A DNA stretch of 64,000 bases from Gemmatimonadota bacterium. GTDB lineage: Bacteria; Gemmatimonadota; Gemmatimonadetes; Gemmatimonadales; GWC2-71-9. The stretch lies in contig JBDHKN010000028.1 of NCBI GenBank assembly GCA_039586365.1, positions 1 through 64,000 on the forward strand. Direction: 5' to 3'. Below are positions 46,818 to 64,000 of this stretch, in pieces (the first letter of the stretch is position 1; each line of letters opens with the position of its first letter). Below the pieces are notes generated by a model. That model ran no database searches, was not told the origin of the DNA, and worked only from the letters and a program-made list of their open reading frames with translations. The position numbers and the translations under genes were made by a program.

Positions 46818-48245
46818 TTGAATACGCATCAGATGGTCGGCGCGATTGCCGTGACAGTGCTGGGTCTCGGCACCATGCCGCTCAGGGCCCAGCACGAATT
46901 AGTCGGTCAGTGGGACGGTGTGATCGCTATCCTCGGGAACGATCTGGGCATTACGGTCGTATTCGAGGCTACGGGCGCTCAAATAACGGCTCAGATCGAT
47001 ATCCCGCAGCAGGGAGCGCAGGGGCTCCCCCTCGCCAATCTGCGATTCGACGATCCCAACGTGCACTTCGAGCTGCCCGCAGCGCAGGGGACTGCGGTCT
47101 TTGACGGACGTGTGCAGGGCGACTCGGTCACCGGTGACTTCACTCAGGCGGGCTACACCGGCACCTTCTCGCTCCACCGTGCGGAGCCGGCTGCAGCGGA
47201 ACCGGCCGCGCAAGAGGCTCAGCCCTATGTGGAGGAAGAGGTCAGTTTCCGCAACGACGCCATCTTGCTGGCCGGGACTCTCACGCTACCGGATGCGGAC
47301 GGTCCTCATCCGGCGGTGGTGATGATCACCGGCAGTGGGGCGCAGAACCGCGACGAGGAGTTGTTCGGCTTCAAGCCGTTCCGCATCATCGCCGACCACC
47401 TCACACGCCACGGAATTGCAGTGCTGCGGTACGACGACCGTGGCGTCGGCGGCTCGACAGGGAGTGTTTCGCAGGCGACTAGCGAAGAGCTGGCCGGTGA
47501 TGTCTTGGCTGCCGTAGGTCTACTCGAGGCTCGTAGTGACATCGATCCGCGACGGATCGGCCTGATCGGTCACAGCGAGGGTGGCATCATCGCGCCGATA
47601 GTGGCCGCACAGTCGAGCGACATAGCGTTCATCGTGCTGATGGCTGGAACGGCGGTGACCGGCGAGAGGATACTGTTGGCGCAGGGCGAGGCTATACTGC
47701 GGGCCAACGGAGCAACGGAAGCGCGGCTCCAAGCCCAGAGAGAAATGCAACAGCAGATCTTCGCTGTGGTGCGCAGTGGAGCAGGGATGGAACAGCTGGC
47801 AGCCAACCTGCGCGAGCAGATACAGGCGAGTCTCGATTCGCTGCCGGTCGAGCAGCGGGCTGCCATCACAGACGAGGATGCTTTCGTCAACTCGAGGCTC
47901 GAGGGACAACTCAGCATGATCCGGTCGCCCTGGTTCCGCTTCTTCTTGGACTACGACCCCGCGGTGACCTTGGAGCAAGTGACAGTACCGGTGCTGGCAC
48001 TGTTTGGTGAACTTGACCTGCAAGTGCCTCTGGTTGTGAACCGAGAGCCGTTGACCCGTGCGTTGGAACGGGGGGGAAATGACGCGGTCACGATCCGTGT
48101 TTTCCCGCGAGCGAACCACCTCTTCCTGACTGCGGAGACCGGCAGTCCAAACGAATACCCTACCATGGAGAAGGAGTTCGTGCCTGGCTTCCTGGAAGAG
48201 ATGACTGACTGGATCCTAGCGCGGGTGGCAAAAGGCGACTCCTGA
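46818..48245 (+). CDS. Secreted alpha/beta hydrolase
   Basis: LAGTLTLP, GSGAQNRDE, LRYDDRGVG, nucleophile GHSEGG, DLQV, ANHLF. Confidence 0.9.
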   Translation: MNTHQMVGAIAVTVLGLGTMPLRAQHELVGQWDGVIAILGNDLGITVVFEATGAQITAQIDIPQQGAQGLPLANLRFDDPNVHFELPAAQGTAVFDGRVQGDSVTGDFTQAGYTGTFSLHRAEPAAAEPAAQEAQPYVEEEVSFRNDAILLAGTLTLPDADGPHPAVVMITGSGAQNRDEELFGFKPFRIIADHLTRHGIAVLRYDDRGVGGSTGSVSQATSEELAGDVLAAVGLLEARSDIDPRRIGLIGHSEGGIIAPIVAAQSSDIAFIVLMAGTAVTGERILLAQGEAILRANGATEARLQAQREMQQQIFAVVRSGAGMEQLAANLREQIQASLDSLPVEQRAAITDEDAFVNSRLEGQLSMIRSPWFRFFLDYDPAVTLEQVTVPVLALFGELDLQVPLVVNREPLTRALERGGNDAVTIRVFPRANHLFLTAETGSPNEYPTMEKEFVPGFLEEMTDWILARVAKGDS

Positions 48246-48378
48246 AGGGGAAAGCGGTGGGGTTCACGGTTGCCGGGCCAAGCGGTGCCCTGGCGACCGG
48301 ATTCGAAGGCGCGGTCGAACCCTTTTGGTGCCATATTGCGTATAGTGAATACCAGGCAGTCAAACCGGAGCGACTGAA

Positions 48379-49227
48379 ATGAGCCCCAGACTCTACTTGA
48401 TCCCGTTAGCCATGGTTGCGGTCGGTGCAGGCGTGGCGGTCAACCGTCACACGCGGGACCACACCGATCACAAGGAAGTGACGGTTGTGGTCTCACCACT
48501 GCCGCAGCAGCACGAATGGTGTAGCGAGCGCCCCAAATCCAGCCGCGGGTGGTATTGTGAGGTCCGCGAGTTCTCGTTCTCAGCCTCGGACCTGAACGCT
48601 CTGGATGCCAGCCCTAACGGTGACATTGAAATGAGAGGTTGGGACAGCGACGCAGTGCAGGTTCTTGCCAAGGTTCAGGCCAGCGCCCGGTCGGATGCGG
48701 ACGCTCATGACCTGGTATCCGTGGTCCGAATCGCGACGTCGGGTGTGAAACTCAATACCAGCGGTCCCAAGGTAGGGCGCAACGAATCGTGGTCGGTCAG
48801 TTACTGTGCGGCCGTGCCGCGGCGGTCGAATTGGTCGCTGCACGCCACTAACGGTGGGATAGCGGTAGAGGATGTGTCGGGCAATCTCGAGCTGGGGACC
48901 ACCAACGGTGGCATCACCCTGAGAGCGGTCGGCGGTGACGTTCAGGGTCGCACCGTCAATGGTGGGATCAAGGCGGAGCTCGAAGGAAATGAGTGGGACG
49001 GTGCGGGGTTGAGCCTCAGGACGACGAACGGCAGCATCGACATCCTCATGTCAGGTGAATACAACGCCGTACTCGAATCCGCCACGACCAATGGCGCCAT
49101 TCAAGTCGATTTCCCGGTCACGGTGAGCGGCCGGATCAGCCGTAGGTTGAACACCGAACTCGGCAACGGCGGCGCCTTGATACAGGCCGTCACGACCAAC
49201 GGCGCGGTGAGGATCAGGAAGAACTAG
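48379..49227 (+). CDS. DUF4097-like beta-strand repeat protein
   Basis: N-terminal hydrophobic segment; repeated T(T/V)NG(G/S/A)I motifs. Confidence 0.85.
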   Translation: MSPRLYLIPLAMVAVGAGVAVNRHTRDHTDHKEVTVVVSPLPQQHEWCSERPKSSRGWYCEVREFSFSASDLNALDASPNGDIEMRGWDSDAVQVLAKVQASARSDADAHDLVSVVRIATSGVKLNTSGPKVGRNESWSVSYCAAVPRRSNWSLHATNGGIAVEDVSGNLELGTTNGGITLRAVGGDVQGRTVNGGIKAELEGNEWDGAGLSLRTTNGSIDILMSGEYNAVLESATTNGAIQVDFPVTVSGRISRRLNTELGNGGALIQAVTTNGAVRIRKN

Positions 49228-49267
49228 ATTGACGATTGACGATTGACGATCGGAAATCGTCAGTCGT
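49227..49267 (+). repeat. Heptamer array A: (GATTGAC)x3 plus inverted copy
   Basis: Starts on the last base of the TAG of 48379..49227; followed by ATCGTCAGTCGT, able to fold back. Confidence 0.9.
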
Positions 49268-49569
49268 GGGTAATGTAACTCAACTCGGTTGCTTTCTTCG
49301 GTTTCTGACGAGCTGTTGCAGAGCCATAGCTCATGGGATCGGTGGTGGACGGGTCAATGCAAGACGGTGTCCTGGCGGCCTGCACGGTATCCAGCGGGCC
49401 TTTGACCGCATCGTTAGGCCTGCTGGACCACCTGATACTCTGCGCCTCGCACGGTAACATCCCTGTCATGTAGCCGTGCACGTCAACTCACCGGCCGGAA
49501 CGACCGCAAGCCACCTTGCTGAACAGGACTTCCGAGTCTGGTCAGCAACCGGATTCAGTCACCCTACCC

Positions 49570-49603
49570 TCACTCGTAACTCGTCACTCGTCACTCGTCA
49601 ATC
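49570..49603 (-). repeat. Heptamer array B: about 5 GAKTGAC units
   Basis: Minus strand reads GATTGAC GAGTGAC GAGTGAC GAGTTAC GAGTGA and encodes the last residues and stop of the hydrolase. Confidence 0.9.
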
Positions 49604-51963
49604 TCAGAGTTGAGAATCGGGTAGGCTGCCCAGTCTTTGTAGTCGAAGTGCCACCACTCGAATTCGTAGACTGAGAACCCCTCGGCTTCCATGACACGGC
49701 GCAGCAGGTCCCGGTGCCAGCGCTGGCGAGAGGTTCCGCCCGGATAGGCCGGGTAGGAGCGTTCGGTCATCTCGTCGTAGGTGCCGACCATCTGGATCGG
49801 CTCCCCCGTGCGCGAATCGTATAGGGTGAGGTCCACCGCGCAGCCGCGGTTGTGGCGGGAACCACTCGCCGGGTTGGCGACGAAGATCTTCTTGTCTTCA
49901 GGCGTAGCGTCCCAGAACATCTTGGTCACGTACCACGGCCGATAGGCGTCGTGGATCAGGAGACCGTAGCCGTACTCTCGGAGCGCTCTGTGAGCACGCA
50001 CCACTGCTTCAGCCGCGGGTCGTTGCAGGAATGCTCGCGGTTGCTGGTAGAACACGGCGCCCATGAAGTTGTCGGTGGAGGCATAGCGGATGTCGAGTTT
50101 GATGGTCGGATCGAGTTCGGTTACTTCCACCAGATCGGGTTCGCGGAACTCGCCCTGTTCCGGCGCCGGTGATGCGGCGAGAGCCTCCTGTCGCAGTTCC
50201 TCGACCGGTCGTACCGGTTCGATCTGGAAAGTGCCTTCATCCAAACCCACGGGTCTCCGCTCGAACACCACGCTGGCCGCTTCCACCGCTGTCGCCCGGC
50301 CAGTGCTGTCACGATTGAAGAGGAGCCGTTCGCCGTGGTACAGCCCGAAGTCGGGGAACGCGAAGACGTCGGGACTCACCTCTTGCAGCGGATAGAAGAA
50401 GAACCACTCGATCAAGGCGTGGAGCTGTCCTCGGCGTTCCAGGATGAACAGGGTGTTGTGATCCCAGCCGTATTCGCCGATCAAACCGCGCCAGCTGTCC
50501 GGGACAGCCGGGGGCGGCCGGCTGCTGGCCTGCCGCAGAGTGTCCCGCCCGATCACGATCCGGCCATCCTGTAGCAGCACGACCGTCCCCCCCTGGTCCA
50601 GCGGACCGTCGACCACCAATGTGTCGCCCCACTGACGCAACTCGAAGGCGATGCCACCGCGGTACAACAGGCCGTGCAGCCGGCCGTTCAGCTCCAAGAA
50701 TTCGATCCCCGCGTCACCGACGGGGTACTCGCCCACCAAGGCGCGAATTCGCTCGTGGGGAACCGGAAGCGTTCTTCTCGGGGTCGGTAGCGGTTGGTGT
50801 TCCCGCACGGCCAGCATGCTCCTGAGCGCGAGGTCGGCGATCAGGTCAGTGACGGCATTGGCGCCATCTTTTGTGGCCACGACGATCGTGCCGACCTTCT
50901 CGTCAGGTAGCAGTGCCAGTTCGGTGGCGAAGCCGTAGATCGCACCGCCGTGACCGATGCGGCGGTGGCCGTCCAACAGGCCGACGTTGAAGCCGAGGCC
51001 GTAACCGTTGGTGGCTCCCGCGGGAGCAAACTGGGGTTGCCACATCGCGGCGAGGGTCTCCTGCCCGACGACGGCGGTGCCGTCGCGGGTACTCCCGGCG
51101 AACAGCACGCTCATGAAACCGCCCAGGTCGATCACCGTGGAGTACATGCTTCCGGCCGGCGCCATCCCCAATTGGAACGTGGGGGCCTCGAACGACCTGC
51201 CGTCGTAGGTCCACATCTGGGCGGCGGCGAGATCCTCGATCAGCTGTGGTTCCGGCTCGAATGCGCTGCGCCTCATGCCGAAGGGTGTGAGGACCGCGTC
51301 CTTGACGTACTTGGCAAAGGGAACGCCCTGCGTGCGCTCGAGTACGTAGCCGACTGTGGCTACGCCGGCATTGGAGTACTTGATTCTGGCCTCAGGCTCG
51401 TACACCAGTGTCGTGGAGTTCAGGCTTGCCACCATCGCCGGGAGCGAAGGTTCAGTGTCGTCGAAGTAGTTGCCAACTGGTGGCTCCCGCACCAGACCAG
51501 CACGGTGGGACATGAGTTGCCGGAGTGTGATCGGTTTGTCGTAGTGGTTTTCGGGGCTGAAGTCGGGCAGGTACGTGGTGACTGGCGCATCCAGCTCCAG
51601 TTCGCCGTGTTGCACCAACCGCATCACCGCCATGTCGGTGAACAGTTTGGAGACCGATCCCACGCGGTACACCGTGTTGGCCGTAGCCGGAGTGCTGTCG
51701 CCAGGATCGGCGTAGCCGAAGCCGCGCGCCCACACGATCTCCTGATCGTCCACCAGCGCAATGGAGACGGCGGGGATCTCCTTCACCTCCATGTGCCATT
51801 CGATGAACGGTTCGAGCAACTCAGCCACCGCCGCATAGTCCCGGCGCGGCTCAATGTCACCGCTGGCGCCACCACACGAGACAGCCCAAGGGAGGAGGAT
51901 GAAGCAGCTGGACCAGTGCCTGAGGATGTCGGCCATGGTGGCCTTAGAGTGTCTTGCAGCCAT
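49591..51963 (-). CDS. Beta-lactamase-family serine hydrolase fused to a VanX/DdpX-type D-Ala-D-Ala dipeptidase
   Basis: GSVSK (SxxK), YSN, HGG in the N-terminal part; DIRYA..NF, DAYRP, SRHNRGCAVD, EWWHF in the C-terminal part. Confidence 0.92.
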   Translation of the reverse strand: MAARHSKATMADILRHWSSCFILLPWAVSCGGASGDIEPRRDYAAVAELLEPFIEWHMEVKEIPAVSIALVDDQEIVWARGFGYADPGDSTPATANTVYRVGSVSKLFTDMAVMRLVQHGELELDAPVTTYLPDFSPENHYDKPITLRQLMSHRAGLVREPPVGNYFDDTEPSLPAMVASLNSTTLVYEPEARIKYSNAGVATVGYVLERTQGVPFAKYVKDAVLTPFGMRRSAFEPEPQLIEDLAAAQMWTYDGRSFEAPTFQLGMAPAGSMYSTVIDLGGFMSVLFAGSTRDGTAVVGQETLAAMWQPQFAPAGATNGYGLGFNVGLLDGHRRIGHGGAIYGFATELALLPDEKVGTIVVATKDGANAVTDLIADLALRSMLAVREHQPLPTPRRTLPVPHERIRALVGEYPVGDAGIEFLELNGRLHGLLYRGGIAFELRQWGDTLVVDGPLDQGGTVVLLQDGRIVIGRDTLRQASSRPPPAVPDSWRGLIGEYGWDHNTLFILERRGQLHALIEWFFFYPLQEVSPDVFAFPDFGLYHGERLLFNRDSTGRATAVEAASVVFERRPVGLDEGTFQIEPVRPVEELRQEALAASPAPEQGEFREPDLVEVTELDPTIKLDIRYASTDNFMGAVFYQQPRAFLQRPAAEAVVRAHRALREYGYGLLIHDAYRPWYVTKMFWDATPEDKKIFVANPASGSRHNRGCAVDLTLYDSRTGEPIQMVGTYDEMTERSYPAYPGGTSRQRWHRDLLRRVMEAEGFSVYEFEWWHFDYKDWAAYPILNSEIDE

Positions 51964-51965
51964 GT

Positions 51966-52007
51966 GATTGACGATTGACGATTGACAATTGACGATTGAC
52001 GAGTGAC
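51966..52007 (+). repeat. Heptamer array C: 6 units
   Basis: GATTGAC x3, AATTGAC, GATTGAC, GAGTGAC; 2 nt from the likely ATG (51963) of the minus-strand hydrolase. Confidence 0.92.
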
Positions 52008-52257
52008 TTCGACCCGAGCGATCACTGATCACCGATTACTAAATACTGACAAGAATGACCGGACCGTCAAGCTAAATTGGGTAGCGCACCTCTGGGCGGC
52101 GGCACAAGCGGTAGATCATCCAACGCCACGCTCGGCACCGCCTACCGTGCAGCGGCAAAGGAGCGTAACGTCAGCTGCGCTACGATCAACGCCGCGAACG
52201 CGTGTCACTGTGCGTTTGATCAGGACACTGACAATCAGGTCCGGTATGGACCCGCGG

Positions 52258-54999
52258 TCATTCCACCGTCAACGCTTCCACCGGATCGACCCTCATCACA
52301 CGCGCCGCGGGAACGAAGCTCGCTATCATCCCAACCAGAGTGAGAGCCAGCACGACCGTTGCGAATACGAATGCGTCGCGGGGGCTGACGTCATAGAGGA
52401 TCTGCCCGACAGCACCGGCGGCCAGCGCCGCGAGGCATATGCCCAAACCCAACCCCATGCCAAGCTGCACTACACCTCTCCGCATCACCAGACCCACCAG
52501 TTGCATCCGCTGCGCACCGAGCGCCATGCGGATGCCGATCTCCTGCGTTCTGAGGCTCACTGCGAACGACATCACGCCGTATAGGCCCACGGCGGCGAGA
52601 AACAGCGCGAAGAACCCGAGCGCCATGAACATGGTGCTGAATATCCTGAACATCCAGGTTGCGTTCTCCATCACCCTTGCGAGCGAGAATACGTTGTAGA
52701 TCGGGAGATTCGGGTCGACGGCGGCAACGGCCGCCCGCGCGTCGCTGGTGAGGGACAAGGGCTCCGCCCTGGTACGGAGGGCCATGCTGATACTCCGACC
52801 CACACTTGCCTGGGAGATCGGCCTGTAGAACCCCGCCGGACTACCGTTCAGATTGCCGATGCCCTGCATGTACAGGTCGGGGGCCAGCCCTACTACCGTA
52901 AACCACGCCTCGGTGGTGTCTCTTCTTCCCATGCGAATGCGCCCACCAATGGCGTCACCGCCCGGGAAGAAGGTGCGCGCAAACGACTGGTTGACTACGA
53001 CAACGGGCAGCGAGTTGTCTCCGTCGCCGTTGTCGAACGCCCTGCCCCTTAGAACATCTACTTCGAAGGTGCGGAAGTAGTCGGCTGTGATGACTCCCTC
53101 TCGCGCGCTTGGAAAGTCATCATCGGTTGCGTAGGTCTGACCTTCCACTTCGAAGACCAGCAGACCGTTGCCCGCGGCCGGCAGTCCGTCCGACAACGTG
53201 GCAGCCTCCACACCGGGAATCGCTTCGAGCTGTGGCAGCAGACTCTCGTAGAACTGAACTCGACTGGCGTTGTCCGGATATTCCACTTCCGGCAGCAGCA
53301 CCCGGGCCGTGAAGATGTTCTCGGTGGCAAATGGCAGCTCGAGGGTGTTCATTTTCACGATGCTCTTGATCATGAGGCCAGCTCCGATCAGCAGGGCACA
53401 CGACACCGCCACCTCCGCCACGACAAATCCGGCGCTCAGCCGCCCCAACTTGAAACTGGACGCACCGCGGCTCTCGTCCTTGAGCGCTTCACCCACGTCG
53501 GCACCCGATGCCTTGAGCGCCGGCACCACACTTGAGACCAGCGCGGCAATCGTGGTCATCGCGATAACGAACACGGTCACCCGATGATCCACGTCGAACC
53601 TCACCCAGAAGGGAGGAGGTGACAGCTGCATCAGCCCGTCGAGCGAACTCATGAAGAACTCACCCAGCCCGAATCCGAGCGCCCCTCCGATTGCCGCCAG
53701 AATCAGCACCTCCGTGAAGAACTGACGCATTACCCGCGCGCGGCTGGCACCGAGGGCCGTTCGCAGCGCGACCTCCCGCACGCGCGCCGACACCCGTGCG
53801 AGCAACAGGTTGGCCACATTGGAGCAGGCGATGAGCAGCACACCTATCACCGCACCCAACATCGTGAGCATGAGGGGCTTGAACTGCTGCCCGACGAAAC
53901 GAACCGTGAACCCCTCCACCGTGGCGCCAATGCCCTCGTTCGTCTCCGGATGCACCTGCTCCAAACGAGCAGCAATCGTAGCGAGCTGGCTCCTCGCTTC
54001 GTCTAGCGTGACACCCGTCTTCAAGCGTGCTATGCCGATGTACTGCGGACCCTCACCGCGCGGCGTGCTCACGGGATCGAACACGATCGGCAGCCAGACC
54101 TGCTGGCGGTCGGGAAAGCCGAACCCCTCCGGCATGACGCCGACGATTGTGTGCCGGACTCCGTTTGCCGTAACGTTCCTTCCTATCACATCGGCCGACG
54201 ACTCGAAGCGATCGCGCCACACGTCGAATCCGATGAGGACTACTTGTTCTGCCCCCGGCAAATCCTCCCCTTCGCGGAAAGTTCTTCCCAGCACAGGACT
54301 GACCTGCAGCACATCGAACAGATTCGCCGTGGACACGCCGCCCCGATAGCGTTCCGGCCGGCCCTCCGAGCCCGACAGGTTGATGGTGAGTTCCCAGCCT
54401 CCGAAGATCGCGAATTCATCGAACACGTTTTGCTGGTCGCGCCAATCCGCGTAGTCGTGGACCGTGATGCCAATCGGATTCGCATCCCGAGCCAGATTGG
54501 TACGCTCGACGGCCACGACGCGCTCCGCCTGAGGCACCGGCAGCCCTTTCCAAAGAGCGCCGTTCACCATGCGGAACACGGTGGTCGTGAGACCGATGCC
54601 GAGCCCGAACGTGCCGATGACTATGAGTGAGAGACTCGGGTGCTTTAGCAGCATCCGAACGCCGAAGCGGATGTCCTTGATGAAGGCTTCCATGTTAGTC
54701 CACACCGAACGCGAGCGACCTGATGCGCGTGGTGCTCGCGGGTTAGAGCTGAACCGGACTTGGAATCGCTCTGTGACTGAATTGCAGAGCAGGGAGACGT
54801 ACTCCCGGAAACATAGGGTTTGCCGCCCCAGCCACCGACGGTCCTGCGTCGCTTCGCGGTGCAAGTCAAAGAACAGAGTGATCATGCGCTCACGGTGCTC
54901 CGAGCCAAACTCTCTTGGCAAGCACAGCCTCGCGAGCCGAGCGTAACAGCGCACCGCTCTGGGGCTCTCCACCTGTCCATCGCTCGATTCTCGCTTCAT
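52258..54999 (-). CDS. Duplicated orphan ABC permease (ADOP-like, 2 x MacB_PCD/FtsX)
   Basis: DIRFGVRML, GVMP..F.FP, LLIACSNVANLLLAR, R.ALGA, GLYGV, EIGIRMALGA, PAAR..RVDP. Confidence 0.92.
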   Translation of the reverse strand: MKRESSDGQVESPRAVRCYARLARLCLPREFGSEHRERMITLFFDLHREATQDRRWLGRQTLCFREYVSLLCNSVTERFQVRFSSNPRAPRASGRSRSVWTNMEAFIKDIRFGVRMLLKHPSLSLIVIGTFGLGIGLTTTVFRMVNGALWKGLPVPQAERVVAVERTNLARDANPIGITVHDYADWRDQQNVFDEFAIFGGWELTINLSGSEGRPERYRGGVSTANLFDVLQVSPVLGRTFREGEDLPGAEQVVLIGFDVWRDRFESSADVIGRNVTANGVRHTIVGVMPEGFGFPDRQQVWLPIVFDPVSTPRGEGPQYIGIARLKTGVTLDEARSQLATIAARLEQVHPETNEGIGATVEGFTVRFVGQQFKPLMLTMLGAVIGVLLIACSNVANLLLARVSARVREVALRTALGASRARVMRQFFTEVLILAAIGGALGFGLGEFFMSSLDGLMQLSPPPFWVRFDVDHRVTVFVIAMTTIAALVSSVVPALKASGADVGEALKDESRGASSFKLGRLSAGFVVAEVAVSCALLIGAGLMIKSIVKMNTLELPFATENIFTARVLLPEVEYPDNASRVQFYESLLPQLEAIPGVEAATLSDGLPAAGNGLLVFEVEGQTYATDDDFPSAREGVITADYFRTFEVDVLRGRAFDNGDGDNSLPVVVVNQSFARTFFPGGDAIGGRIRMGRRDTTEAWFTVVGLAPDLYMQGIGNLNGSPAGFYRPISQASVGRSISMALRTRAEPLSLTSDARAAVAAVDPNLPIYNVFSLARVMENATWMFRIFSTMFMALGFFALFLAAVGLYGVMSFAVSLRTQEIGIRMALGAQRMQLVGLVMRRGVVQLGMGLGLGICLAALAAGAVGQILYDVSPRDAFVFATVVLALTLVGMIASFVPAARVMRVDPVEALTVE

Positions 55000-55005
55000 C
55001 TACCC

Positions 55006-55332
55006 TCAGAGGATTACGCCTTTGTCCCGGGCCATCCCGGCCACTGCCGTGAGCCACTCCGCTTCCGTTCGCAACACTCTCTTACCCCTGGCCGTGATGC
55101 TGTAATAGTTGCGGCGCTCGTCGTCGAGTTCGGGTACCGGGCGCTCCTCCGATTCCTCAATGAGCCCGTCATTCAGCATCCGCTTGATCGCGGTGTAGAG
55201 CGTGCTCGCCGTCAAGCGCACTCTTCCGTCGGTGTGCCGCTGAACGTCGCGGATGATGGCGTAGCCGTGCAGTTGCTTGTCGCTCAGCGAGAGCAGGATC
55301 TGGAAGGCTTGGGGCGAGAGTGTCTTGGACAA
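55006..55332 (-). CDS. PadR family transcriptional regulator
   Basis: ILLSL, HGYAI, TLYTAIKRM, RRNYYSIT..G. Confidence 0.9.
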   Translation of the reverse strand: MSKTLSPQAFQILLSLSDKQLHGYAIIRDVQRHTDGRVRLTASTLYTAIKRMLNDGLIEESEERPVPELDDERRNYYSITARGKRVLRTEAEWLTAVAGMARDKGVIL

Positions 55333-55395
55333 GCCAAACCTCTATCTCGAATCATGTAATAGTACTGCGTAGCGCGATATAGTATTCATCAAATC

Positions 55396-55564
55396 TACGT
55401 ATTGTCTGGTGAGGAGGTTTCAGGTCAGTGGGGGGCCGCAAGGGGCGTGCGGACGCGACGGGTCGTCCTGCGAAGTTAGCTAGCCGTCCAGATGTGTTTA
55501 GCCGACGTCGGGCCGGGTCCCGACGGTGGCGATCGCCTGAAACCTCCTCCGGAGACAATCCGTA
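55396..55564. other. 169-bp element bounded by 29-bp imperfect inverted repeats (MITE-like or structured RNA)
   Basis: TACGTATTGTCTGGTGAGGAGGTTTCAGG (55396-55424) pairs with CCTGAAACCTCCTCCGGAGACAATCCGTA (55536-55564) at 25 of 29 positions. Confidence 0.7.
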
Positions 55565-55633
55565 TGGTAAAGATGTAGGGGTAATCCCTATAGCTTTGCC
55601 CCCTGGAATCTGACATCAGCCACCGGAGGCTCC

Positions 55634-55990
55634 ATGAGCGCGCGGGATCCCACAGAGCTGCTACCGTTAACCACGCTCACCTATCACATACTCCTCGCAC
55701 TGGCCGGCACGCCGCGCCACGGCTATGGGATCATCAAGGAGGTGTCCAACCGGACCGATGGGTGCGTGGAGCTGGAGACCGGTACCCTGTACGCGGCCAT
55801 CAAGCGGCTGCGCGACGAGCAGTTGATCGAGGTCGTGCCAAGATCCGAGCGGCCGCCAGAGGAGGACAGCCGCCGCAGGAACTACCGTCTCACCAAGTTC
55901 GGCCAGGCTGTGCTGAAGGCCGAGTCGCAGCGGCTAGCTCAACTGGTGGGAATGGCGGTGGAGAAGAGTGTGCTGCCGGCGTGGGATTGA
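55634..55990 (+). CDS. PadR family transcriptional regulator
   Basis: GGAGG RBS; HILLAL, HGYGI, GTLYAAIKRL, RRRNYRLT.FG. Confidence 0.92.
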   Translation: MSARDPTELLPLTTLTYHILLALAGTPRHGYGIIKEVSNRTDGCVELETGTLYAAIKRLRDEQLIEVVPRSERPPEEDSRRRNYRLTKFGQAVLKAESQRLAQLVGMAVEKSVLPAWD

Positions 55991-56047
55991 CGATTGATGA
56001 TTGACGATTGACGAGTGACGAGTGACGATTGACGAGTGACGAATGAC
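55985..56047 (+). repeat. Heptamer array D: 9 units
   Basis: GATTGAC/GATTGAT/GAGTGAC/GAATGAC units; the first unit supplies the PadR stop codon. Confidence 0.93.
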
Positions 56048-56087
56048 CGATCATGACCGCTCACCGCTCTGTGGCGGAGACGCAGCG

Positions 56088-58754
56088 ATGACTAACCGAT
56101 TGACCTGGCCTCTGCGCCTCTACCGTCTAGCCCTACGCGCTTATCCGCTCGCGTTTCGCGCTGAATGCGCCGAGGAGATGATCGAGACGCTCCGGAGCCG
56201 CGAGGCCGTTATCAGGGAAGCACGACAACGGTCGCGGCTGATCCGGTTCTGGTACAAGGAACTCTCCAGCGTGATCCGCAGCGGTCTGCGCTTGCGCATG
56301 CAGCGGGACGAACGGTCAGTGACGAAGTCGAGGGAAAGGAAGCAATCGACCGCCGCAAGAGTGCTCTGCGTCGCACGTCAGGACGTCCAGTTCGCTGTTC
56401 GGACGCTGCACAGGCACTGGGTACTCACGTCGGTTGTGGTCTTGACGCTCGCACTCGGCATCGGCGCAAGCGTGGCCACGTTCAACACGTTGTACGCCGC
56501 GCTCCTGAGACCGTTGCCGTTCCCCACCCCCGACCGCCTGGTAATGGGCAGGGCGGTGTTCAATCAGCAGCTCAATCCGTGGGCGGCCGGTGCCGACTAC
56601 TACGACTATCACGACCGCGCTGAGGCCTTCGACAACCTGGCCGCCTTCCTCCCCTTTCCTCAGGAATACACGGTGACAGGAGGCGAGCGCGCTGAGCGCG
56701 CCGCGGGCTTCACCGTCTCAACGAACTTCTTCGCCACGCTCGGCGTGCGTCCCCAAGCCGGACGAGACTTCGCAACCGAAGAGGGTTTGCAGGGAGCATC
56801 GGATGTGGCGCTCATAAGTCACTCATACTGGCAGAGTCACTTCGGCGGGGCACACGGTGCGGTTGGCCGGACGATTGTCGTGAATGGTAGACCGTACGCT
56901 GTGGTAGGAATAATGCCGCCAGACTTCCGCTTCATGTCCGAGGTGGAATTCTGGCTTCCCATGCGTGCGGACCGGGACGCGGCAGCGGCGAGGGATCGTC
57001 ACAACTGGCTGTTGGTGGCACGTCTCAAACCCAATGTCACCCTCGAGCAGGCACAGACCCAAGTCGACGTGATCTCGGCGCAACTCGAGCAAGCCTACCC
57101 AGAGACCAACACGGGGAAGTCGCTGCTGCTTACGGAACTGCACGACGTGCTGATGGAAGACTACCGCGCGACACTGTTCATAGTCACAGCTGCCGTGGGT
57201 CTGGTACTGCTGATAGCCTGCGGCAACGTGACCGGAATACTCCTGGCCCGCGCACCGGCACGCCGCACCGAGCTGTCGGTGCGGGCTGCAGTCGGTGCGG
57301 CGAGATCGCGTCTGATATCTCAGCTCCTCGCGGAAACGTTGGTTCTGGCTCTGGTCGCTGGACTCGCAGGCACGGTGATCGCGCTGTTCCTGCAGCAGTC
57401 GATAGTCGACTTCACACGCGTCGATTTGCCCGGTAACTACGATCGGGGCTTCTCAGCGCCTTTGCTCTGCTTCGCGGTTGTCTTCTCGCTCGCCGCAGGC
57501 TTGCTGGCCGGCGTCTACCCGGCCCTCGGGAGCGTACGTGGCAATCTCGCCCAAGATCTGAGGGCCGGTGCGAGAACCATCGAAGGCGGAGGCCTGCGGT
57601 TTCGGAGCGGGCTTGTGGTAGCTCAGGTAGCGGCGTCGGTAATCCTGCTCATCGGTTCCGGGTTGTTGATCCGCAGCTTCGCCAGCGTGCTGGCGGTCAA
57701 TCCGGGGTTCGACCCGCACAACGTGATAGCTGCCGACGTCGAGTTGCCCAGCGCTGCCTATGCCGGGCGTGACGCGCGCGTCGAGTTTTACGGTGAACTC
57801 GTCGAGCGAATACGTGCCATTCCCGGGGTTCAATCTGCCAGCCTCGTCAACCTCCTGCCGATTCGCGAGCCGCGCAACGTGTTCCGCGTAACCACTGCTG
57901 AGCATCCGGATCAGGCCAACTCGGTGTACCTCCGGGCGGTCCCGTCCGGCTACTTCGAGACGATGCGCATCCCGCTACTGGGCGGTCGAGCGATCGAGGC
58001 CGGCGATGCAGCGAACGCTAGCCAAGTTTGCCTCATCAGCGAGGCTGCAGCCACGGTTTTGTTACGGGGTAACCCGCTCGGCCGTGAATTGACACTGGAC
58101 TGGTTTGGCACACCCCTTACCGTGGAGGTCGTGGGTGTTGTGGGTGATGTGCGCATGAGCGGACTCGATGCCGCACCGGGCCTCACGTTGTACGTACCGT
58201 ATCCGCAGATCGCTTACCCCGCCATGCGCATCGTCGCCCGTACCGACGTGGTGCCGACATCCATCGCTGACGAACTGCGCGACGCCGTCTGGGCGCTGGA
58301 CGAGAACATACCAGTATCTGCCATCACGACGATGGACGACGTGATCGATAGTTCCGTGTCACGTCGTAGAGTGATCGCGATGTCGCTGACCCTTTACGCC
58401 GTGTTGCCGCTCGTAATGGCGGCAGTGGGACTCTATGCCGTACTCGCATACCACGTGACCCAACGGTTCCACGAGATAGGTATCCGCATGGCACTGGGTG
58501 CCGATGCAGCGCGGATTGGTTGGCTGGTGTTGGGACGCGGTATCGGCCTGATCGGATTGGGTCTGGCACTGGGGATAGGTGGTGCCGTCGCCGCCACCCG
58601 GCTGTTGCAGCAGATGTTGTTCGGTATCCAGCCCACCGACCCCACCACCTTCGTAGGCGTGGGCTTGTTCGTGCTGGCGGTGGCGCTGCTGGCCGGTCTG
58701 GTACCGGTGTGGCGCGCCGTGCGAGTGGACCCGCAGATCGCGCTCAAAGATTGA
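56088..58754 (+). CDS. Duplicated orphan ABC permease (ADOP-like)
   Basis: QDVQFAVRTL, LRPLPF, LLIACGNV, NPGFD, EIGIRMALGA, RAVRVDP. ATG after GGAG. Confidence 0.92.
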   Translation: MTNRLTWPLRLYRLALRAYPLAFRAECAEEMIETLRSREAVIREARQRSRLIRFWYKELSSVIRSGLRLRMQRDERSVTKSRERKQSTAARVLCVARQDVQFAVRTLHRHWVLTSVVVLTLALGIGASVATFNTLYAALLRPLPFPTPDRLVMGRAVFNQQLNPWAAGADYYDYHDRAEAFDNLAAFLPFPQEYTVTGGERAERAAGFTVSTNFFATLGVRPQAGRDFATEEGLQGASDVALISHSYWQSHFGGAHGAVGRTIVVNGRPYAVVGIMPPDFRFMSEVEFWLPMRADRDAAAARDRHNWLLVARLKPNVTLEQAQTQVDVISAQLEQAYPETNTGKSLLLTELHDVLMEDYRATLFIVTAAVGLVLLIACGNVTGILLARAPARRTELSVRAAVGAARSRLISQLLAETLVLALVAGLAGTVIALFLQQSIVDFTRVDLPGNYDRGFSAPLLCFAVVFSLAAGLLAGVYPALGSVRGNLAQDLRAGARTIEGGGLRFRSGLVVAQVAASVILLIGSGLLIRSFASVLAVNPGFDPHNVIAADVELPSAAYAGRDARVEFYGELVERIRAIPGVQSASLVNLLPIREPRNVFRVTTAEHPDQANSVYLRAVPSGYFETMRIPLLGGRAIEAGDAANASQVCLISEAAATVLLRGNPLGRELTLDWFGTPLTVEVVGVVGDVRMSGLDAAPGLTLYVPYPQIAYPAMRIVARTDVVPTSIADELRDAVWALDENIPVSAITTMDDVIDSSVSRRRVIAMSLTLYAVLPLVMAAVGLYAVLAYHVTQRFHEIGIRMALGADAARIGWLVLGRGIGLIGLGLALGIGGAVAATRLLQQMLFGIQPTDPTTFVGVGLFVLAVALLAGLVPVWRAVRVDPQIALKD

Positions 58755-58790
58755 CGATTGACGATTGACGATTGACGAATGACGAGTGAT
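58749..58790 (+). repeat. Heptamer array E: 6 units
   Basis: GATTGAC x4, GAATGAC, GAGTGAT; the first unit supplies the permease stop codon. Confidence 0.93.
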
Positions 58791-58851
58791 GAGCTGATTC
58801 CTGATCGCTGATTATTAATAACTGAATACTGACGACAACAATGACCGCTCC

Positions 58852-59033
58852 ATCCAACTGGCGTGGGGATGGGGTTCGCACTTGTGGCCGGGTTGGCCCC
58901 GGCCATGGGGAATCTGTTGTTTGACGCCGATCTGTGGGATTGGAGGATCTACTCGGTGATCGCTTTCACTCTGTTCCTGGCGGGCCTCGCGGCGTCATTG
59001 ATCCCGGCGCTGCAAACGCTGCGATACGACTGA
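58852..59033 (+). pseudogene. C-terminal remnant of a further ADOP-like permease
   Basis: Reads GVGMGFALVAGLAPAMGNLLFDADLWDWRIYSVIAFTLFLAGLAASLIPALQTLRYD*, matching the last two TM helices of the neighbouring permeases; no start. Confidence 0.7.
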
Positions 59034-59045
59034 CTAATCCCAATT

Positions 59046-59073
59046 GTCACTCGTCAATCGTCAATCGTCAATC
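59046..59073 (-). repeat. Heptamer array F: 4 units
   Basis: Minus strand GATTGAC x3, GAGTGAC, overlapping the TGA of 59072..61786. Confidence 0.9.
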
Positions 59074-61786
59074 ACTCCGCCCGCAACACCTCCTGTGGAT
59101 CAACCCTGACCGCCCGCAGTGCTGGCACCACACACGCGATCAATCCGACCGCTACGAGGCAGAGGCTCACACTGGCAAACGTGACCGCGTCCCTAGCGGA
59201 GACGCCGAACAGGAGACTACTGACAATCCTTGTGCCCGCGAAGCCACCCGTGAGTCCGAGGACGATCCCGATCGCCACCAGCGACATCCCCTTCCGGAGC
59301 ACGAGTCCGATTATGCTTGGAGGCGCTGCCCCCATTGCCACTCTTATTCCCAGCTCGCGGGTGCGCTGTCTCACGAAGTAAGCCAGCACACCGTACAGCC
59401 CCGTCGACGCTAGGACCACTGCTACAGCCGCGAACAGAGCCACGAGTATCATCCTGAAGCGCGGCTGCGACAGCGAGTTCGCAATGCGTGTCTCCATGTT
59501 CTGGAATCCCGAGATCGGTATCTCCCGGTCCACCTCCCACACCGCCTCGCGCAACGCCGGTGCTATTTCGGTCGGATTTCCGGCGGTCCGCACCATGAGT
59601 TGCAGCCTCTGAGGACCGACCTGACGCGCCGGGATGTAGAACACGTTGGGTACGTCTGCGGCCAGCCCGAACTCCCTCACGTCACCCACGACGCCAACCA
59701 CGTCCCAATTCGCATCCCACAGGACCATCTGCTTGCCCAGCGGATCTTCGTCCGGAAAGAACCGGTTCGCCATGGTCTGGCCGATTATCATGACCAGCGT
59801 GGAGTTGGGCCCGTCCAGCGCCGAGAAGTCACGGCCCGCGAGGATGGGGATCCCCATGGTCGCGAAGTAGCCCTCCGATATCATCCTGCGGTCACCCGCC
59901 GATTGATTGCGGTCGGCAGTACTTGCCGGCGGCCGGTCAGCCGGATAGACGGTATTCCAGGTGCCACCACTCCGGATCGGCTGTTGATCGATGGAGCCGA
60001 CCGACACCACGCCTGGCAGCGCTGCAACTTGCTGATGTATCAGCGACCAGGCTTGCTCGATCTCTTCATTGGACCGGTACTTCCAACTCGGCAGCTGCGC
60101 ATCTGCTTGGAGCAACCGCTGCGCCTGGAACCCGGGATCGACCCCCTGCAGCCGCAAGTAGCTCCGCACCAGCAGACCGGATGCTATCATCAGCATCAGT
60201 GACAGAGCAACTTGTGTGACCACCAGCGTACTCCTGAAGCCCGACTTCCCCTGGCTGCTACCGCGCATGCCACCGACCCTGAGAGCATCCGCGAGTGAGA
60301 GGCTGGTTCCTCTCAGTGCCGGCACGACTCCGAAAAGGATGCTCGTAGCTAGGGAGAGAATGAACGCGAATCCCAGCACCCTAGCATCCAATCCCAACTC
60401 CTGCAAGCGAGGCAACGTTCCCGGCCCAAACGACTTGAGAGCGTCCATCCCGAGCAGTGCCAGTATCACGCCGACACCACCACCCAGAAGTGCGACCAAC
60501 ACGCTTTCGGTCAGCAACAGCCGCACTACTCTGCCTCGTACTGCGCCCAGCGAGAACCGCACAGCTATTTCGGGGATTCTGGTGGCAGCCCGAGCGAGCG
60601 CCAGCGAGGCCACGTTCGCGCACGCGATCAGCAGGACCAGTGAGACCAGGCCGAGCATGATGAACAGGACGGTTCTCGCACCTGCGAAGAGCCGCTCGTG
60701 TAGCGATTGGAGCCGCACACTCCATCCTTGGTTGGTCTCCGGATACGCTTCTGCGATGCGCTGGGCGATCATCTGCATCTGCCCCTGTGCCTGCTCGATG
60801 GTCATGCCTTCCGCCAACCGGCCTATCAGATTGAAGTTGTTGTTTCCTCGGCTCTGCGTGAACGGATCTCTGGCTTGCATTGGGAACAACAGGCCCACTG
60901 CGCTCGGGAAATTGAAATCCTGTGGCATGACACCGACTATCTGATATGGCTCCCCGTTGATCGTAATTGAAGTGCCGACGGCCGTCTGATCATTTCCGAA
61001 TCGTCTCTGCCAGAAGCCGTGTGAGATGACTACGACGTTCTGCTCGCCGGTGCGTTCCTCTTCCAGCAAGAAGGATCGACCCAGTTGCGGGGCGACGCCC
61101 AACGTGGAGAAGAAGTTGTACGATACCGTCGTACTGGGAACGCGTTCCGGTTCGTCACGCCCAGTGATGATGGCCTGCGGTGTGAACACCAGCATTGCGG
61201 CTACCGACTTGAGCGCATCTGCCTGTTCGCGAAAATCCCAGTAGTCCAGTGCGGATGTGGAGTTGCTCATGACTCCCCGCTCTTCATTCATGCTCGAGAT
61301 CCAAACGAGTTCCTCGGGATCTTCGAGCGGGAGCGGTCTCAGCACAACCGAGTTCAGCAGACTGAACATCAGCGTGACCGCACCGATGCCGATGGCGAGC
61401 ACCAGCACGCTAGCCAGGGTGAATCCGGGGCTGCGTCTGAAGCTGCGGGACGCAAAACGGATGTCGTTCCATGAGTCTTTCATGATGAAACCCCTCGAAG
61501 CTCTGCCTCCAGTGGCGGGGCCGCTCGAGTGCACCGGCCCGGGTTTTTGGCGGCGGTGCGCGCCGCGGCGCGTCAGATACCGCAAGCAGAGCGGCGGCAG
61601 CTGACTCCAGTACCACAGGCCCGCGCGCAGCCGCACTGCCCGACTAGTGGGATCCCGTTCCATCAGGCTGCAATAGGCTTCGTGCAGATCGCCGAGCACG
61701 GTGTCCCGCACCATGCCTCGGGGGAGGCAGGCAGCCAGCAGCGCCTGGGCTGCGCGGGGAGGCACTGCCTTGCGTACTGGTCTCAT
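59072..61786 (-). CDS. Duplicated orphan ABC permease (ADOP-like)
   Basis: GDL.E N-terminal prefix, DIRFASRSF..SPGF, LLIACANVA, DPGF, ELGIRVAMGA, RAVRVDP; ATGA overlap with padR. Confidence 0.92.
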   Translation of the reverse strand: MRPVRKAVPPRAAQALLAACLPRGMVRDTVLGDLHEAYCSLMERDPTSRAVRLRAGLWYWSQLPPLCLRYLTRRGAHRRQKPGPVHSSGPATGGRASRGFIMKDSWNDIRFASRSFRRSPGFTLASVLVLAIGIGAVTLMFSLLNSVVLRPLPLEDPEELVWISSMNEERGVMSNSTSALDYWDFREQADALKSVAAMLVFTPQAIITGRDEPERVPSTTVSYNFFSTLGVAPQLGRSFLLEEERTGEQNVVVISHGFWQRRFGNDQTAVGTSITINGEPYQIVGVMPQDFNFPSAVGLLFPMQARDPFTQSRGNNNFNLIGRLAEGMTIEQAQGQMQMIAQRIAEAYPETNQGWSVRLQSLHERLFAGARTVLFIMLGLVSLVLLIACANVASLALARAATRIPEIAVRFSLGAVRGRVVRLLLTESVLVALLGGGVGVILALLGMDALKSFGPGTLPRLQELGLDARVLGFAFILSLATSILFGVVPALRGTSLSLADALRVGGMRGSSQGKSGFRSTLVVTQVALSLMLMIASGLLVRSYLRLQGVDPGFQAQRLLQADAQLPSWKYRSNEEIEQAWSLIHQQVAALPGVVSVGSIDQQPIRSGGTWNTVYPADRPPASTADRNQSAGDRRMISEGYFATMGIPILAGRDFSALDGPNSTLVMIIGQTMANRFFPDEDPLGKQMVLWDANWDVVGVVGDVREFGLAADVPNVFYIPARQVGPQRLQLMVRTAGNPTEIAPALREAVWEVDREIPISGFQNMETRIANSLSQPRFRMILVALFAAVAVVLASTGLYGVLAYFVRQRTRELGIRVAMGAAPPSIIGLVLRKGMSLVAIGIVLGLTGGFAGTRIVSSLLFGVSARDAVTFASVSLCLVAVGLIACVVPALRAVRVDPQEVLRAE

Positions 61787-62115
61787 TGTTGCTCCAGTAT
61801 CGAGTCCAGCCCCTCCCACAGTTGCAACCAGGCGGTACGCGATCGCCGCACTGCGGCAAGCCCGGCAGGAGTCACTGTCAGGTATCGCTTGGGCTTCCCG
61901 CCGCGCCGGGGCGTCGGGTCCCCAAGCTGTGAAGTGAGCATGCCCTTTTCTTCCAGCCGGTCGAGTGTCACGTAGAGGGCTCCACGCGACACTGTGCGGC
62001 CGACTCGTTCGCTCAGCTCTTGCAGCACGTTGGTACCGAAGGCCTCACCGTTCAGTTGCAGCACGGCGAGCAGGATCATCTGTTCCAGTTCGCCGAGATA
62101 TCCGGTTCGCTTCAT
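61783..62115 (-). CDS. PadR family transcriptional regulator
   Basis: LGELEQMILLA, GALYVTLDRLEEKG, RGGKPKRY..VT..G. Confidence 0.92.
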   Translation of the reverse strand: MKRTGYLGELEQMILLAVLQLNGEAFGTNVLQELSERVGRTVSRGALYVTLDRLEEKGMLTSQLGDPTPRRGGKPKRYLTVTPAGLAAVRRSRTAWLQLWEGLDSILEQQ

Positions 62116-62193
62116 GGTTCCGCGCCAGTATAGTGACAGGTGAGCCTCATCCAATCATACAAAATAGACGCAGGCAGTGAGAAAAAGGTTTCA

Positions 62194-62228
62194 GATTGAC
62201 GATTGACGATTGACGAATGGCGATTGAC
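62194..62228 (+). repeat. Heptamer array G: 5 units
   Basis: GATTGAC x3, GAATGGC, GATTGAC, about 100 nt upstream of the four-helix-bundle gene. Confidence 0.9.
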
Positions 62229-62332
62229 GGTCGGCAGGTGCCACGGGAGAGTCCGCACCGCCATTTTGATCCCGTTGTGCGCGGGTCTGGTACTCCAGAT
62301 TGGACGGCAACGTGCAGATTGTGCAGGTGTCA

Positions 62333-62698
62333 ATGAACCGGTTCGATCTCAGCAATAGGTTGGTCGAGTTCGCGGTCTCGACTTGCCGACTGGCGGTGGA
62401 GTGTAGCAGAGACAGGGTGACCGGCCATATCACTGTTCAGCTCACCCGCTGTGGTACGGCACCGGCGGCGCACTATGCAGAAGCCGTGGATGCGGAGTCG
62501 CGACGAGACTTCATCCACAAGATGAAGCTGGCACTCAAGGAATTACGTGAGTCGCTGGTCTGGCTGCAGATTGTTGAGAGACTTGGCTTGACTCAGGGCC
62601 AGCTGGTTCATTCAGTGATCGCTGAATGCAACGAACTGACAGCCATCTTCGTAGCAGGCGTAGCCACAGCCAGGGGCAATTCAAGGACTGATGATTGA
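62333..62698 (+). CDS. Four helix bundle protein (23S rRNA IVP/TIGR02436-like, Avd fold)
   Basis: L..R...FA, QL.R.GT...A.YAEA..AESRRDFIHKMK.ALKELRES..WL, E.NEL.AIF. Confidence 0.92.
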   Translation: MNRFDLSNRLVEFAVSTCRLAVECSRDRVTGHITVQLTRCGTAPAAHYAEAVDAESRRDFIHKMKLALKELRESLVWLQIVERLGLTQGQLVHSVIAECNELTAIFVAGVATARGNSRTDD

Positions 62699-62720
62699 CG
62701 ACTGACGAATGACGAATGAC
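62686..62720 (+). repeat. Heptamer array H: about 5 units
   Basis: GACTGAT GATTGAC GACTGAC GAATGAC GAATGAC, containing the stop of the four-helix-bundle gene. Confidence 0.9.
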
Positions 62721-62762
62721 GAACGATTCAGTTTGTTGGCCGCCTCTAAAATCGCCCCATGC

Positions 62763-62804
62763 CTCACTCGCAAATCGTCAATCGTCAATCGTCAATCGTC
62801 AATC
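62763..62804 (-). repeat. Heptamer array I: 4 perfect plus 2 degenerate units
   Basis: Minus strand GATTGAC x4, GATTTGC, GAGTGAG; the first unit supplies the permease stop codon. Confidence 0.92.
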
Positions 62805-64000
62805 TCTGAGCGCGCTTACCGGATCGACCTTGGTCGCCCTGCGGGCGGGCAGGTAGCTGGCTATGAGGGTGGCCACTGTGACGAGTAGGGCGACGCTGGC
62901 AAGTGTTAGCGGGTCGGCTGGGCTGACCTCGAACAGGAGACTCCGTATCACTCGGGAGCCAGCCAGAGCCAGCGCAAGCCCTATGGCAAGGCCGATCCCC
63001 GCCATTGCCAGTCCGCGCCGCAACACACTGCGCAGGACGTCGCTCGCTCCCGCGCCCAGCGCCATACGAATACCGATCTCGTTGCTGCGTTGTTGCACTG
63101 CGTATGCGAGCACGCCGTAGATGCCGATGATTGCCAGCAACGCGGCCAGCGCAGAGAGGCAGCCAAACACGATCATGGCGAAGCGGGGTGCGGAGACCGC
63201 AGCGGAGCCGCTGATCGCTTCCTCTAGGCTGAACACACTGACCGGGAGATCGGAATCCAGCGACCACACGGCCTCCCGTATAGCGGGTGCGAGCGCCTCA
63301 GGTCCCAGTGCCGACTTGACGATGATGAATTGGTACCAGTAGGGGATCTGTGCAAACGGCACGTAATACTTGGGGAAGGGGCGGGAGTTGAGTCGGTAGC
63401 GCACATTCCCGGCCACTCCCACCACGGTGCGCCAGATAGAGTCACCGGGTACCGGCACCATCACGCGCCGTCCGATGGGATCAACGCCAGGCCAAAAGCG
63501 CTCCGCCATCGCGCGGTTGATGATGATTGCCGCTGGAGCATCCTCCGTGTCTTCGGCTGTGAAGCTGCGTCCGGCCAACAACGGAATCCCCATGGTCGAC
63601 AGGTAACTCGGTGTGATGCTCGCTCTGTGAACCGTTGTCTCGACCTCACCATCGGGAGTCTCGATGAGGGTGGGCGGAGACGACCAACCCCCGACGATCG
63701 GCATCTGACTCGCGCGTGCGAAATCCTGCACCCCGGGGATCGCCGCCATCCGTTGGTCCAGGTCTCGGAACAACCCTCGCGTCGTGTCGCCGTAGTCACG
63801 ATACTGCGCCGGCAAGTTGATGCTGCTGATCAGCAGACCCTGAGGGGCAAATCCGGGGTCGACCGCGGTCAGGCGTTGCAGGCTGCGAACGAACAGACCA
63901 GTGCCCGCCAGTAGCACGAAAGCCAGCGCAACTTCCGCTACCACCAGTGCAGCGTGCGTGCGGTGCGTGCGCCGTCCGCCTGCATGTCCCCTGCCGCCGT
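62799..64000 (-). CDS. ADOP-like ABC permease, 3' part (runs off the window)
   Basis: LVVAEVALA, VDPGF, GIYGV, EIGIRMALGA, PARRATKVDP. Confidence 0.9.
   Translation of the reverse strand, partial: GGRGHAGGRRTHRTHAALVVAEVALAFVLLAGTGLFVRSLQRLTAVDPGFAPQGLLISSINLPAQYRDYGDTTRGLFRDLDQRMAAIPGVQDFARASQMPIVGGWSSPPTLIETPDGEVETTVHRASITPSYLSTMGIPLLAGRSFTAEDTEDAPAAIIINRAMAERFWPGVDPIGRRVMVPVPGDSIWRTVVGVAGNVRYRLNSRPFPKYYVPFAQIPYWYQFIIVKSALGPEALAPAIREAVWSLDSDLPVSVFSLEEAISGSAAVSAPRFAMIVFGCLSALAALLAIIGIYGVLAYAVQQRSNEIGIRMALGAGASDVLRSVLRRGLAMAGIGLAIGLALALAGSRVIRSLLFEVSPADPLTLASVALLVTVATLIASYLPARRATKVDPVSALRD

Follow-up and report, generated by a model that had tools for sequence, protein, structure and literature searches.

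Inverted heptamer arrays around a four-helix-bundle gene as candidate arms and scars of a mobile cassette in Gemmatimonadota

In Coxiella burnetii, the 23S rRNA intervening sequence (IVS) joins a small protein gene to tandem seven-base repeats. In the available portion of its description (PMC4990558), the S23p open reading frame (ORF) lies in the loop of a stem made by terminal inverted repeats, the 5′ arm carries tandem GACAGAT heptamers in variable number, the ORF is subject to decay, and 2GSC is described as a pentamer. Here we analyse a 64,000-nucleotide (nt) stretch (the window; positions 1 to 64,000 of contig JBDHKN010000028.1, Gemmatimonadota assembly GCA_039586365.1), in which arrays of a GANTGAC heptamer occupy gene ends around a gene of the same four-helix-bundle (FHB) protein family. 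To our knowledge, this very common family has no known function. We favour, with a probability of roughly 65%, the reading that these arrays are the arms and scars of a small mobile FHB cassette rather than a conserved regulon.

In repetitive extragenic palindromic (REP)/REPIN-RAYT systems, one gene stands between copies of its own repeat, and the repeat also occurs many times without a gene in intergenic DNA. Dispersed heptamer arrays have also been described. According to the parts of the two reports available, GGGAATC arrays in Xanthomonas and Nostoc comprise about four units, lie on the sense strand near or over stop codons and frequently form inverted pairs (Rehm et al. 2015, PMC4692102), and the patchily distributed TAACTGA repeats of Beggiatoaceae, cyanobacteria and Bacteroidetes are intergenic, provide stops in three frames and overlap ORF ends (MacGregor 2015, PMC4679880). 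Neither ‘helix bundle’ nor ‘XCC0516’ appears in the main text of the former, and none of ‘helix bundle’, ‘intervening’ and ‘S23’ in that of the latter (0 occurrences each, supplements aside). Our literature search, subscription papers and supplements aside, returned no paper that connects FHB genes with heptamers dispersed through a genome. Avd, as far as the accessible text of its description goes, forms a barrel of five subunits with positive charge and acts together with RNA and a reverse transcriptase (RT) (PMC6182149; PDB 4DWL).

An FHB gene framed by inverted heptamer arrays

Tandem Repeats Finder places period-7 arrays in the window at 49227, 49570, 51966, 55985, 58749, 59041/59046, 62194, 62686 and 62773, the last with a degenerate tail reaching 62763. 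The doublet GANTGACGANTGAC matches 28 times in the window, every time within 49227-62804 and never in the first 49 kb, and 0 times in 100 shuffles. An initial annotation of this DNA, which reported nine arrays and saw none in the first 49 kb, was correct in this respect. A feature absent from that reading is the pairing of arrays as inverted arms: those at 62194 and 62763-62804 are inverted relative to each other, and folding of the RNA of 62170-62820 (z = -5.5) predicts that they form a long stem whose loop holds the FHB ORF.

The protein encoded between these arms scores above the curated cut-offs of the TIGR02436 and PF05635 hidden Markov models (HMMs; 65.8 bits versus 24 and 46.2 versus 33.8). 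Its predicted structure consists of four long helices (mean predicted local distance difference test, pLDDT, 92) and matches 2RLD and 2GSC with template modelling (TM) scores of 0.77-0.83, followed by Avd at about 0.7 and about 15% identity, which supports the earlier statement that the fold is shared with Avd.

Arms of this kind are a recurrent property of the family. We listed 172 FHB loci (80 from a homologue search, 90 from relatives and 2 from this genome; a subset of 199 matches), and all family-wide results below refer to these. Matching inverted 7- or 8-mer arrays stand on both sides of the gene at 105 of the 172, against 19 of 400 mismatched flank pairs, so that the suspected tie between arrays and FHB gene holds. 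Of the 99 armed loci with enough flank, 60 have a left arm that begins at a sense stop (shifted control 11.4) and 51 a right arm that begins at a convergent stop (shifted control 8.8); median arm lengths are 4.3 and 4.7 units, respectively. Furthermore, the heptamer co-varies with protein clade, as had been predicted: six or more unit bases are common to 35-51% of pairs of FHB proteins that are at least 60% alike, and to 0.5% or less of pairs below 30% identity. Each FHB clade retains its own unit across phyla. A direct-plus-inverted layout similar to that seen in the window is present in close Gemmatimonadota homologues (L034 and L040).

Two FHB genes were found in this assembly. One is the window gene within GANTGAC arms (family A), and the other, on contig C73, lies within inverted arms of a second unit, GAGCNGR (family B). 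The latter gene (C73:44646-45002) has an apparent frameshift near its start. At another locus (L228, G001:C548), two convergent FHB genes of divergent type have 6-nt-period repeats upstream in place of heptamers. A GxxExxY gene on C69 was considered as a partner and rejected, its flanks showing no arrays.

Arrays are enriched at stop codons irrespective of a stop in the unit

The assembly of this genome (G000), which is 86% complete, contains 47 perfect triple repeats of period 7, versus 9, 16, 1 and 1 for periods 5, 6, 8 and 9. Genome-wide mapping yielded 56 family A arrays and 68 family B arrays, along with 11 arrays of a 10-mer and two further, minor families. After neighbouring arrays were merged, a same-sense stop was present within -21 to +15 nt of the array start for 26 of 55 family A arrays (4 in the mirror position) and 22 of 63 family B arrays (3 in the mirror position), where random intergenic placement would give 5-10%. 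Thus, the stop-codon enrichment and strand bias anticipated from the window extend across the genome. An inward-facing partner of the same family lies within 700 nt of 16 A arrays and 24 B arrays; a six-frame translation of the genome revealed no FHB remnants, either in the 700 nt around each array or further away.

In the window, seven of the nine arrays begin on or supply a sense stop, namely those of the DUF4097 gene (TAG, split after TA), the hydrolase (EIDE*), PadR (WD*), three ADOP permeases (KD*; E*, through a TGA split after T; RD*) and the FHB gene (TDD*). These stops stand as first noted, but their hosts are not all unrelated: all three permeases come from a single family (TIGR03434) and are paralogues. 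The remaining two arrays (51966 and 62194) point away from gene starts, the latter lying 79 nt upstream of a PadR ATG. Gene calls come from our own hexamer model, in which starts are less reliable than stops.

The initial annotation pointed out that the TGA in the 7-nt unit gives stops in all three frames. These stops are not the reason for the position, because family B, the majority of whose units lack a stop codon, is placed alike. The families do differ in their offsets from the stop, which are -20 to +1 in 22 of 26 cases for A and +1 to +9 in 20 of 22 for B, as expected if only stop-bearing arrays are tolerated within the last codons. The three-frame stop merely permits family A arrays a few codons inside the gene end.

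The same control family bears on whether the arrays are microsatellites that grew by slippage from chance Glu/Asp-TGA gene ends and were retained only where harmless. GANTGA does read as a Glu or Asp codon followed by TGA, the commonest stop in this genome (2769 of 5203 called stops), and copy number ranges from 2 to 10. Slippage is nevertheless contradicted by the stop-free arrays in the same position, by the excess of period 7 over its neighbours, by the near absence of the unit from 60 relatives and by the inverted pairs around one gene family. We regard this origin as largely refuted and scarcely credible.

Arrays are also concentrated near the FHB gene, in agreement with the clustering seen at first: ten A arrays fall in the surrounding 17 kb, where 0.17 would be expected from a uniform distribution. 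Nine are in the window, the tenth is just beyond it (C50:65913, on the window’s contig) and 46 others are on different contigs. Each family is densest on the contig with its cognate FHB gene (A, 10 on C50; B, 11 on C73). This is suggestive only, because contigs without an FHB gene also hold clusters.

On C42 and C57, arrays from two different families face each other over a short gap, and two A arrays (C75:135-162 and C75:7782-7809) are preceded by an identical sequence that by eye resembles a tRNA 3′ end. An inverted pair of 10-mer arrays in the window (GGGACGGTGG x3 and TCCCTCACCG x3, 15924-15988) forms a hairpin; similar units turn up on further contigs and, in G002, downstream of an FHB gene (L240). 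The 10-mer family (AAAGGGCGGT) is present in this genome on C23, C27, C42, C43, C51, C61, C77, C103, C106 and C107, and was found in 0 of 60 relatives.

One stop codon, four states

The family A triple occurs 81 times (overlapping) in this genome and once each in 2 of the 60 relatives (61-genome tallies include one unpublished genome, G021, on which alone no claim depends). At the stop of the permease gene at 59072-61786, orthologues have no array in G005 and G006, GAATGTA in G007 and GAACATC in G002. The same stop therefore exists in four states (empty, GATTGAC, GAATGTA and GAACATC), the empty one being what a comparison of orthologous loci had been proposed to reveal. The replacement units are themselves dispersed: GAATGTA has 70 matches in G007, 8 in G005 and 0 here, and GAAYRTC has 150 in G002, 23 in G003 and 0 here. 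These are the arm units of an FHB gene in the respective genomes; G004 agrees only partly.

Other sites in the locus show comparable turnover. At the stop of the DUF4097 orthologue, G002 carries a full FHB cassette with GAACRTC arms, and this genome has arms around a gene-less interior. Homology with G006 spans 59072-62193, exactly from array to array; the G006 hydrolase-ADOP junction falls in an N gap, and no target-site duplication is visible in this comparison, made at 81% identity with different neighbours. Some arrays also appear to truncate host C termini: hydrolase orthologues extend several residues further, usually into a different downstream gene, and orthologues of the permease that ends RD* at the right arm end REQ* or RQQ*.

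These observations bear on a regulatory network, in which the FHB protein would bind arrays in mRNA 3′ ends and control termination, stability or translation. Strict sense orientation at stops, a unit count close to five, the work of Avd with RNA (PMC6182149, in the text available) and the statement in the accessible part of PMC4692102 that Xanthomonas transcripts often begin or end at G-quadruplex (G4)-forming heptamer repeats would all suit such a network. It would not predict that congeners have the same stop empty or filled by another heptamer, that a near-identical strain without the gene at the locus still has the arms, that arrays remain without a detected gene, or that host C termini are apparently cut off. 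We consider regulation of this kind quite improbable. The initial proposal of protein sites marking transcript boundaries, read as a conserved network, is likewise unsupported: the arrays are lineage-specific, replaced at the same stop and persistent without a found cognate gene.

A probable exchange of the interior between shared arms

A contig from a sediment metagenome (X2) joins 62206 to 62775 through 306 other letters in place of the FHB gene, with the arms kept. Its flanks (212 and 202 nt, with 1 and 3 differences) are 99% identical to the window, and its insert is a diverged relative of the interior at 49268-49569. A contig from a different study (X1) has the same right junction, and another (X4) runs from the left arm into the FHB leader. 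Because these contigs differ at the cassette, filled and gene-less alleles are likely to coexist in the species. Most short metagenome joints were repeat-to-repeat matches and were disregarded. Together with the states of the orthologous stop, the swap supports an early suggestion, in which an element inserting at gene ends leaves the arrays as scars.

The 49268-49569 interior has three more partial copies in the genome (C43, C4 and C73), each adjoining repeat arrays. It contains no convincing ORF, and in family genomes only short, chance-level matches were found (13 of 150). Its end motif has 0 exact matches in metagenome contigs and 0 in five congeners at two mismatches. No transposase sharing the terminal repeats was found in the cassette or at genome-wide matches of the motif.

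Such an element invites the view that another enzyme makes or moves the arrays, or that they are targets of insertion sequence (IS)-derived miniature elements, and that the FHB gene is a passenger surviving in array hairpins. Consistent with this, the gene-less 300-nt element, which ends in short inverted sequences of its own, is found within the same arms as well as next to 10-mer arrays; the FHB protein has no enzyme fold; and arrays exist without a detected cognate gene. A passenger role fits poorly with FHB clades that keep their own unit across phyla, with the dominant dispersed unit of a genome being its resident FHB arm unit, and with the lack of any observed transposase bearing the interior end motif. 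We judge it rather unlikely.

A candidate mobile cassette

The reading that the arrays belong to a mobile FHB cassette draws on four observations: the inverted-arm layout, the position at stops, the FHB-specific heptamer that matches dispersed arrays, and the gain, loss and swap at fixed sites. The cassette would consist of an FHB gene between two inverted runs of four to five heptamers, and would land at gene edges, mostly at stop codons. Its transcript is predicted to form a long stem that carries the ORF in its loop, as rRNA IVSs do, a fold that would keep the insertion nearly harmless and may serve as a terminator or RNase III site. Avd and the length of the arms hint, tentatively, that the FHB protein forms a pentamer, as its structurally solved relatives do, binds about five units, roughly one per subunit, and acts with an RT or recombination function supplied in trans. 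That function, once recruited, would copy arms into RNA or DNA exposed just past the stop codon. Selection would then fix the exact position, in that TGA-bearing arms may replace the last codons and stop-free arms would stay after the native stop.

Several findings weigh against this account. Neither the cassette nor the DNA next to it contains a transposase, recombinase or RT. The sole RT hit in the assembly (C91:31876-33117) has, by reading, group II intron-like ends, and the sole Y1 transposase hit is weak and about 10 kb from the nearest mapped A array (C56:45961). The arm test failed at 67 of the 172 loci, and the enrichment of arm ends at start codons is slight (39 versus 26.8 and 16 versus 16.2). 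Within 700 nt, 37 of 56 A arrays have no inward-facing partner; the same is true of 41 B arrays. G006, a single scaffold, has 88 family B matches and only two degenerate FHB hits, such arms being absent from the one whose flanks were inspected. Family B arrays also occur in G001 and G007, where none of the FHB genes seen has B arms, and no cognate gene was detected for the 10-mer arrays of this genome. Arrays without a detected gene fit scars that outlast the gene, or another maker. The strain swap is drawn from individual low-depth contigs that cross repeats, and may have gone in either direction. Finally, protein-heptamer co-variation is also predicted by simple co-inheritance. A residue-to-base test, made on 39 nearest-neighbour pairs taken from 87 loci, did not demonstrate a code: 1 of 100 permutations equalled its best column (p = 1e-4), but base changes follow overall divergence (r = 0.65) and unit phasing is inconsistent.

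Organization of the locus

The arrays lie among genes for a DUF4097 protein, a beta-lactamase-fold/dipeptidase fusion, PadR regulators, ADOP duplicated permeases and the TIGR02436 FHB protein (Table 1), with the best protein matches coming from Gemmatimonadota. The fusion gene (49591-51963) is conserved in congeners, and its product scores under every resistance-family cut-off. Four PadR-ADOP permease modules span 52258-65815; a GGTTTCA motif is common to three PadR upstream regions, and in two of these (62194 and C50:65913) arrays start directly at the motif. Degenerate period-7 tails (CTGAT-like) follow two arrays, at 52020-52053 and 58791-58833, and are possibly older arrays of another unit.

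Table 1 Features of the array-bearing part of the window
Feature	Position	Strand	Remarks
GATTGAC array, 3.4 units	49227..49250	+	Starts on G of DUF4097 stop; left arm of gene-less element; local hairpin with 49256-49267
Gene-less interior, ~300 nt	49268..49569	n/a	Short imperfect inverted end motif (GGGTA-S-GGT-R-AC-like)
GA(T/G)TGAC array	49570..49603	-	Supplies hydrolase stop (EIDE*); right arm of gene-less element
Host gene: serine hydrolase (beta-lactamase fold) + D-Ala-D-Ala dipeptidase domain fusion	49591..51963	-	Array at either side
Solo array, 6 units	51966..52007	+	2 nt from in-frame hydrolase ATG on opposite strand; alternative ATG at 51936
Solo array, 9 units	55985..56047	+	Supplies PadR stop (WD*); upstream of ADOP permease
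Array	58749..58790	+	Supplies ADOP permease stop (KD*); predicted pairing with 59046-59073 (duplex -49.5 kcal/mol)
Remnant like 3′ end of another permease gene	58869..59033	+	Ends in single GACTGAC unit; trapped between two arms; family assigned by eye from sequence/translation
Array	59046..59073	-	Starts on GA of ADOP permease TGA
Left (outer) arm, FHB cassette	62194..62229	+	Homology with G006 stops at 62193, one base earlier
FHB protein gene (TIGR02436/PF05635), 121 aa	62333..62698	+	HMM matches, predicted fold
Inner direct array	62686..62723	+	Supplies FHB stop (TDD*); alternative partner for right arm
Right (outer) arm, FHB cassette	62763..62804	-	Supplies stop of convergent ADOP permease (RD*)

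Implications

The locus contributes a probable within-species interior swap, an orthologous stop with four states and a stop-free control family. It also ties to the FHB family the kind of 7-base array that has been reported from cyanobacteria, Beggiatoaceae and Xanthomonas with no source given, and a mobile cassette could explain the 7-base repeats of many bacteria. Arms appear to rewrite protein C termini and to mark gene-order breakpoints. Congeners with different protein-heptamer pairs offer specificity controls for a direct test of a given protein and heptamer. More speculatively, and on balance doubtfully, the cassette may be a minimal mobile element of a class not described before. A pentamer resembling Avd would recognise five heptamers in the hairpin of its own RNA; arms would be written just past stops by an RT or recombinase acting in trans, and would then swap interiors and shuffle neighbours such as the PadR-permease modules, giving rRNA IVSs and bacterial 7-base repeats a common source.

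Comparison with known systems

By the features compared, the cassette is not a member of the REP/RAYT, diversity-generating retroelement (DGR) or 23S IVS classes. As in REP/RAYT systems, a single gene is framed by its own repeat, of which many gene-less copies exist; here the repeats are tandem heptamers rather than palindromic REPs, and they frame an FHB gene instead of one for a Y1 transposase. The likeness to Avd is the four-helix-bundle fold. In contrast to DGRs, no RT adjoins the FHB gene, and no DGR turned up at the locus, where a template/variable repeat pair was given no dedicated search.

The arrays do correspond to the dispersed heptamer type (short tandemly repeated repetitive (STRR), TAACTGA and GGGAATC sequences), being genome-specific intergenic 7-nt runs of about four units near gene ends. 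They share unit number, sense placement at stops and inverted pairs with the GGGAATC arrays as described in the portion of that report available, where these are interpreted as G-quadruplex repeats, whereas the GATTGAC-type unit has no G-tracts. Like the TAACTGA repeats, they form intergenic arrays that run over ORF ends and provide a stop in each of the three frames; the majority of TAACTGA repeats, however, lie just upstream of start codons (PMC4679880, in the text available).

A 23S rRNA helix is not the location here: the flanks are PadR and ADOP genes, and 48000-64000 contains no rRNA match and nothing above noise in Rfam. The element lies between protein-coding genes at stops, with its unit at 56 sites. 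In other respects, as far as the accessible text on Coxiella burnetii goes, the two agree in protein family, in a terminal inverted stem (predicted here around the S23p-family ORF at 62194-62804 by RNA folding) and in arm heptamers. By analogy, the cassette would appear to work most like an IVS moved to mRNA ends.

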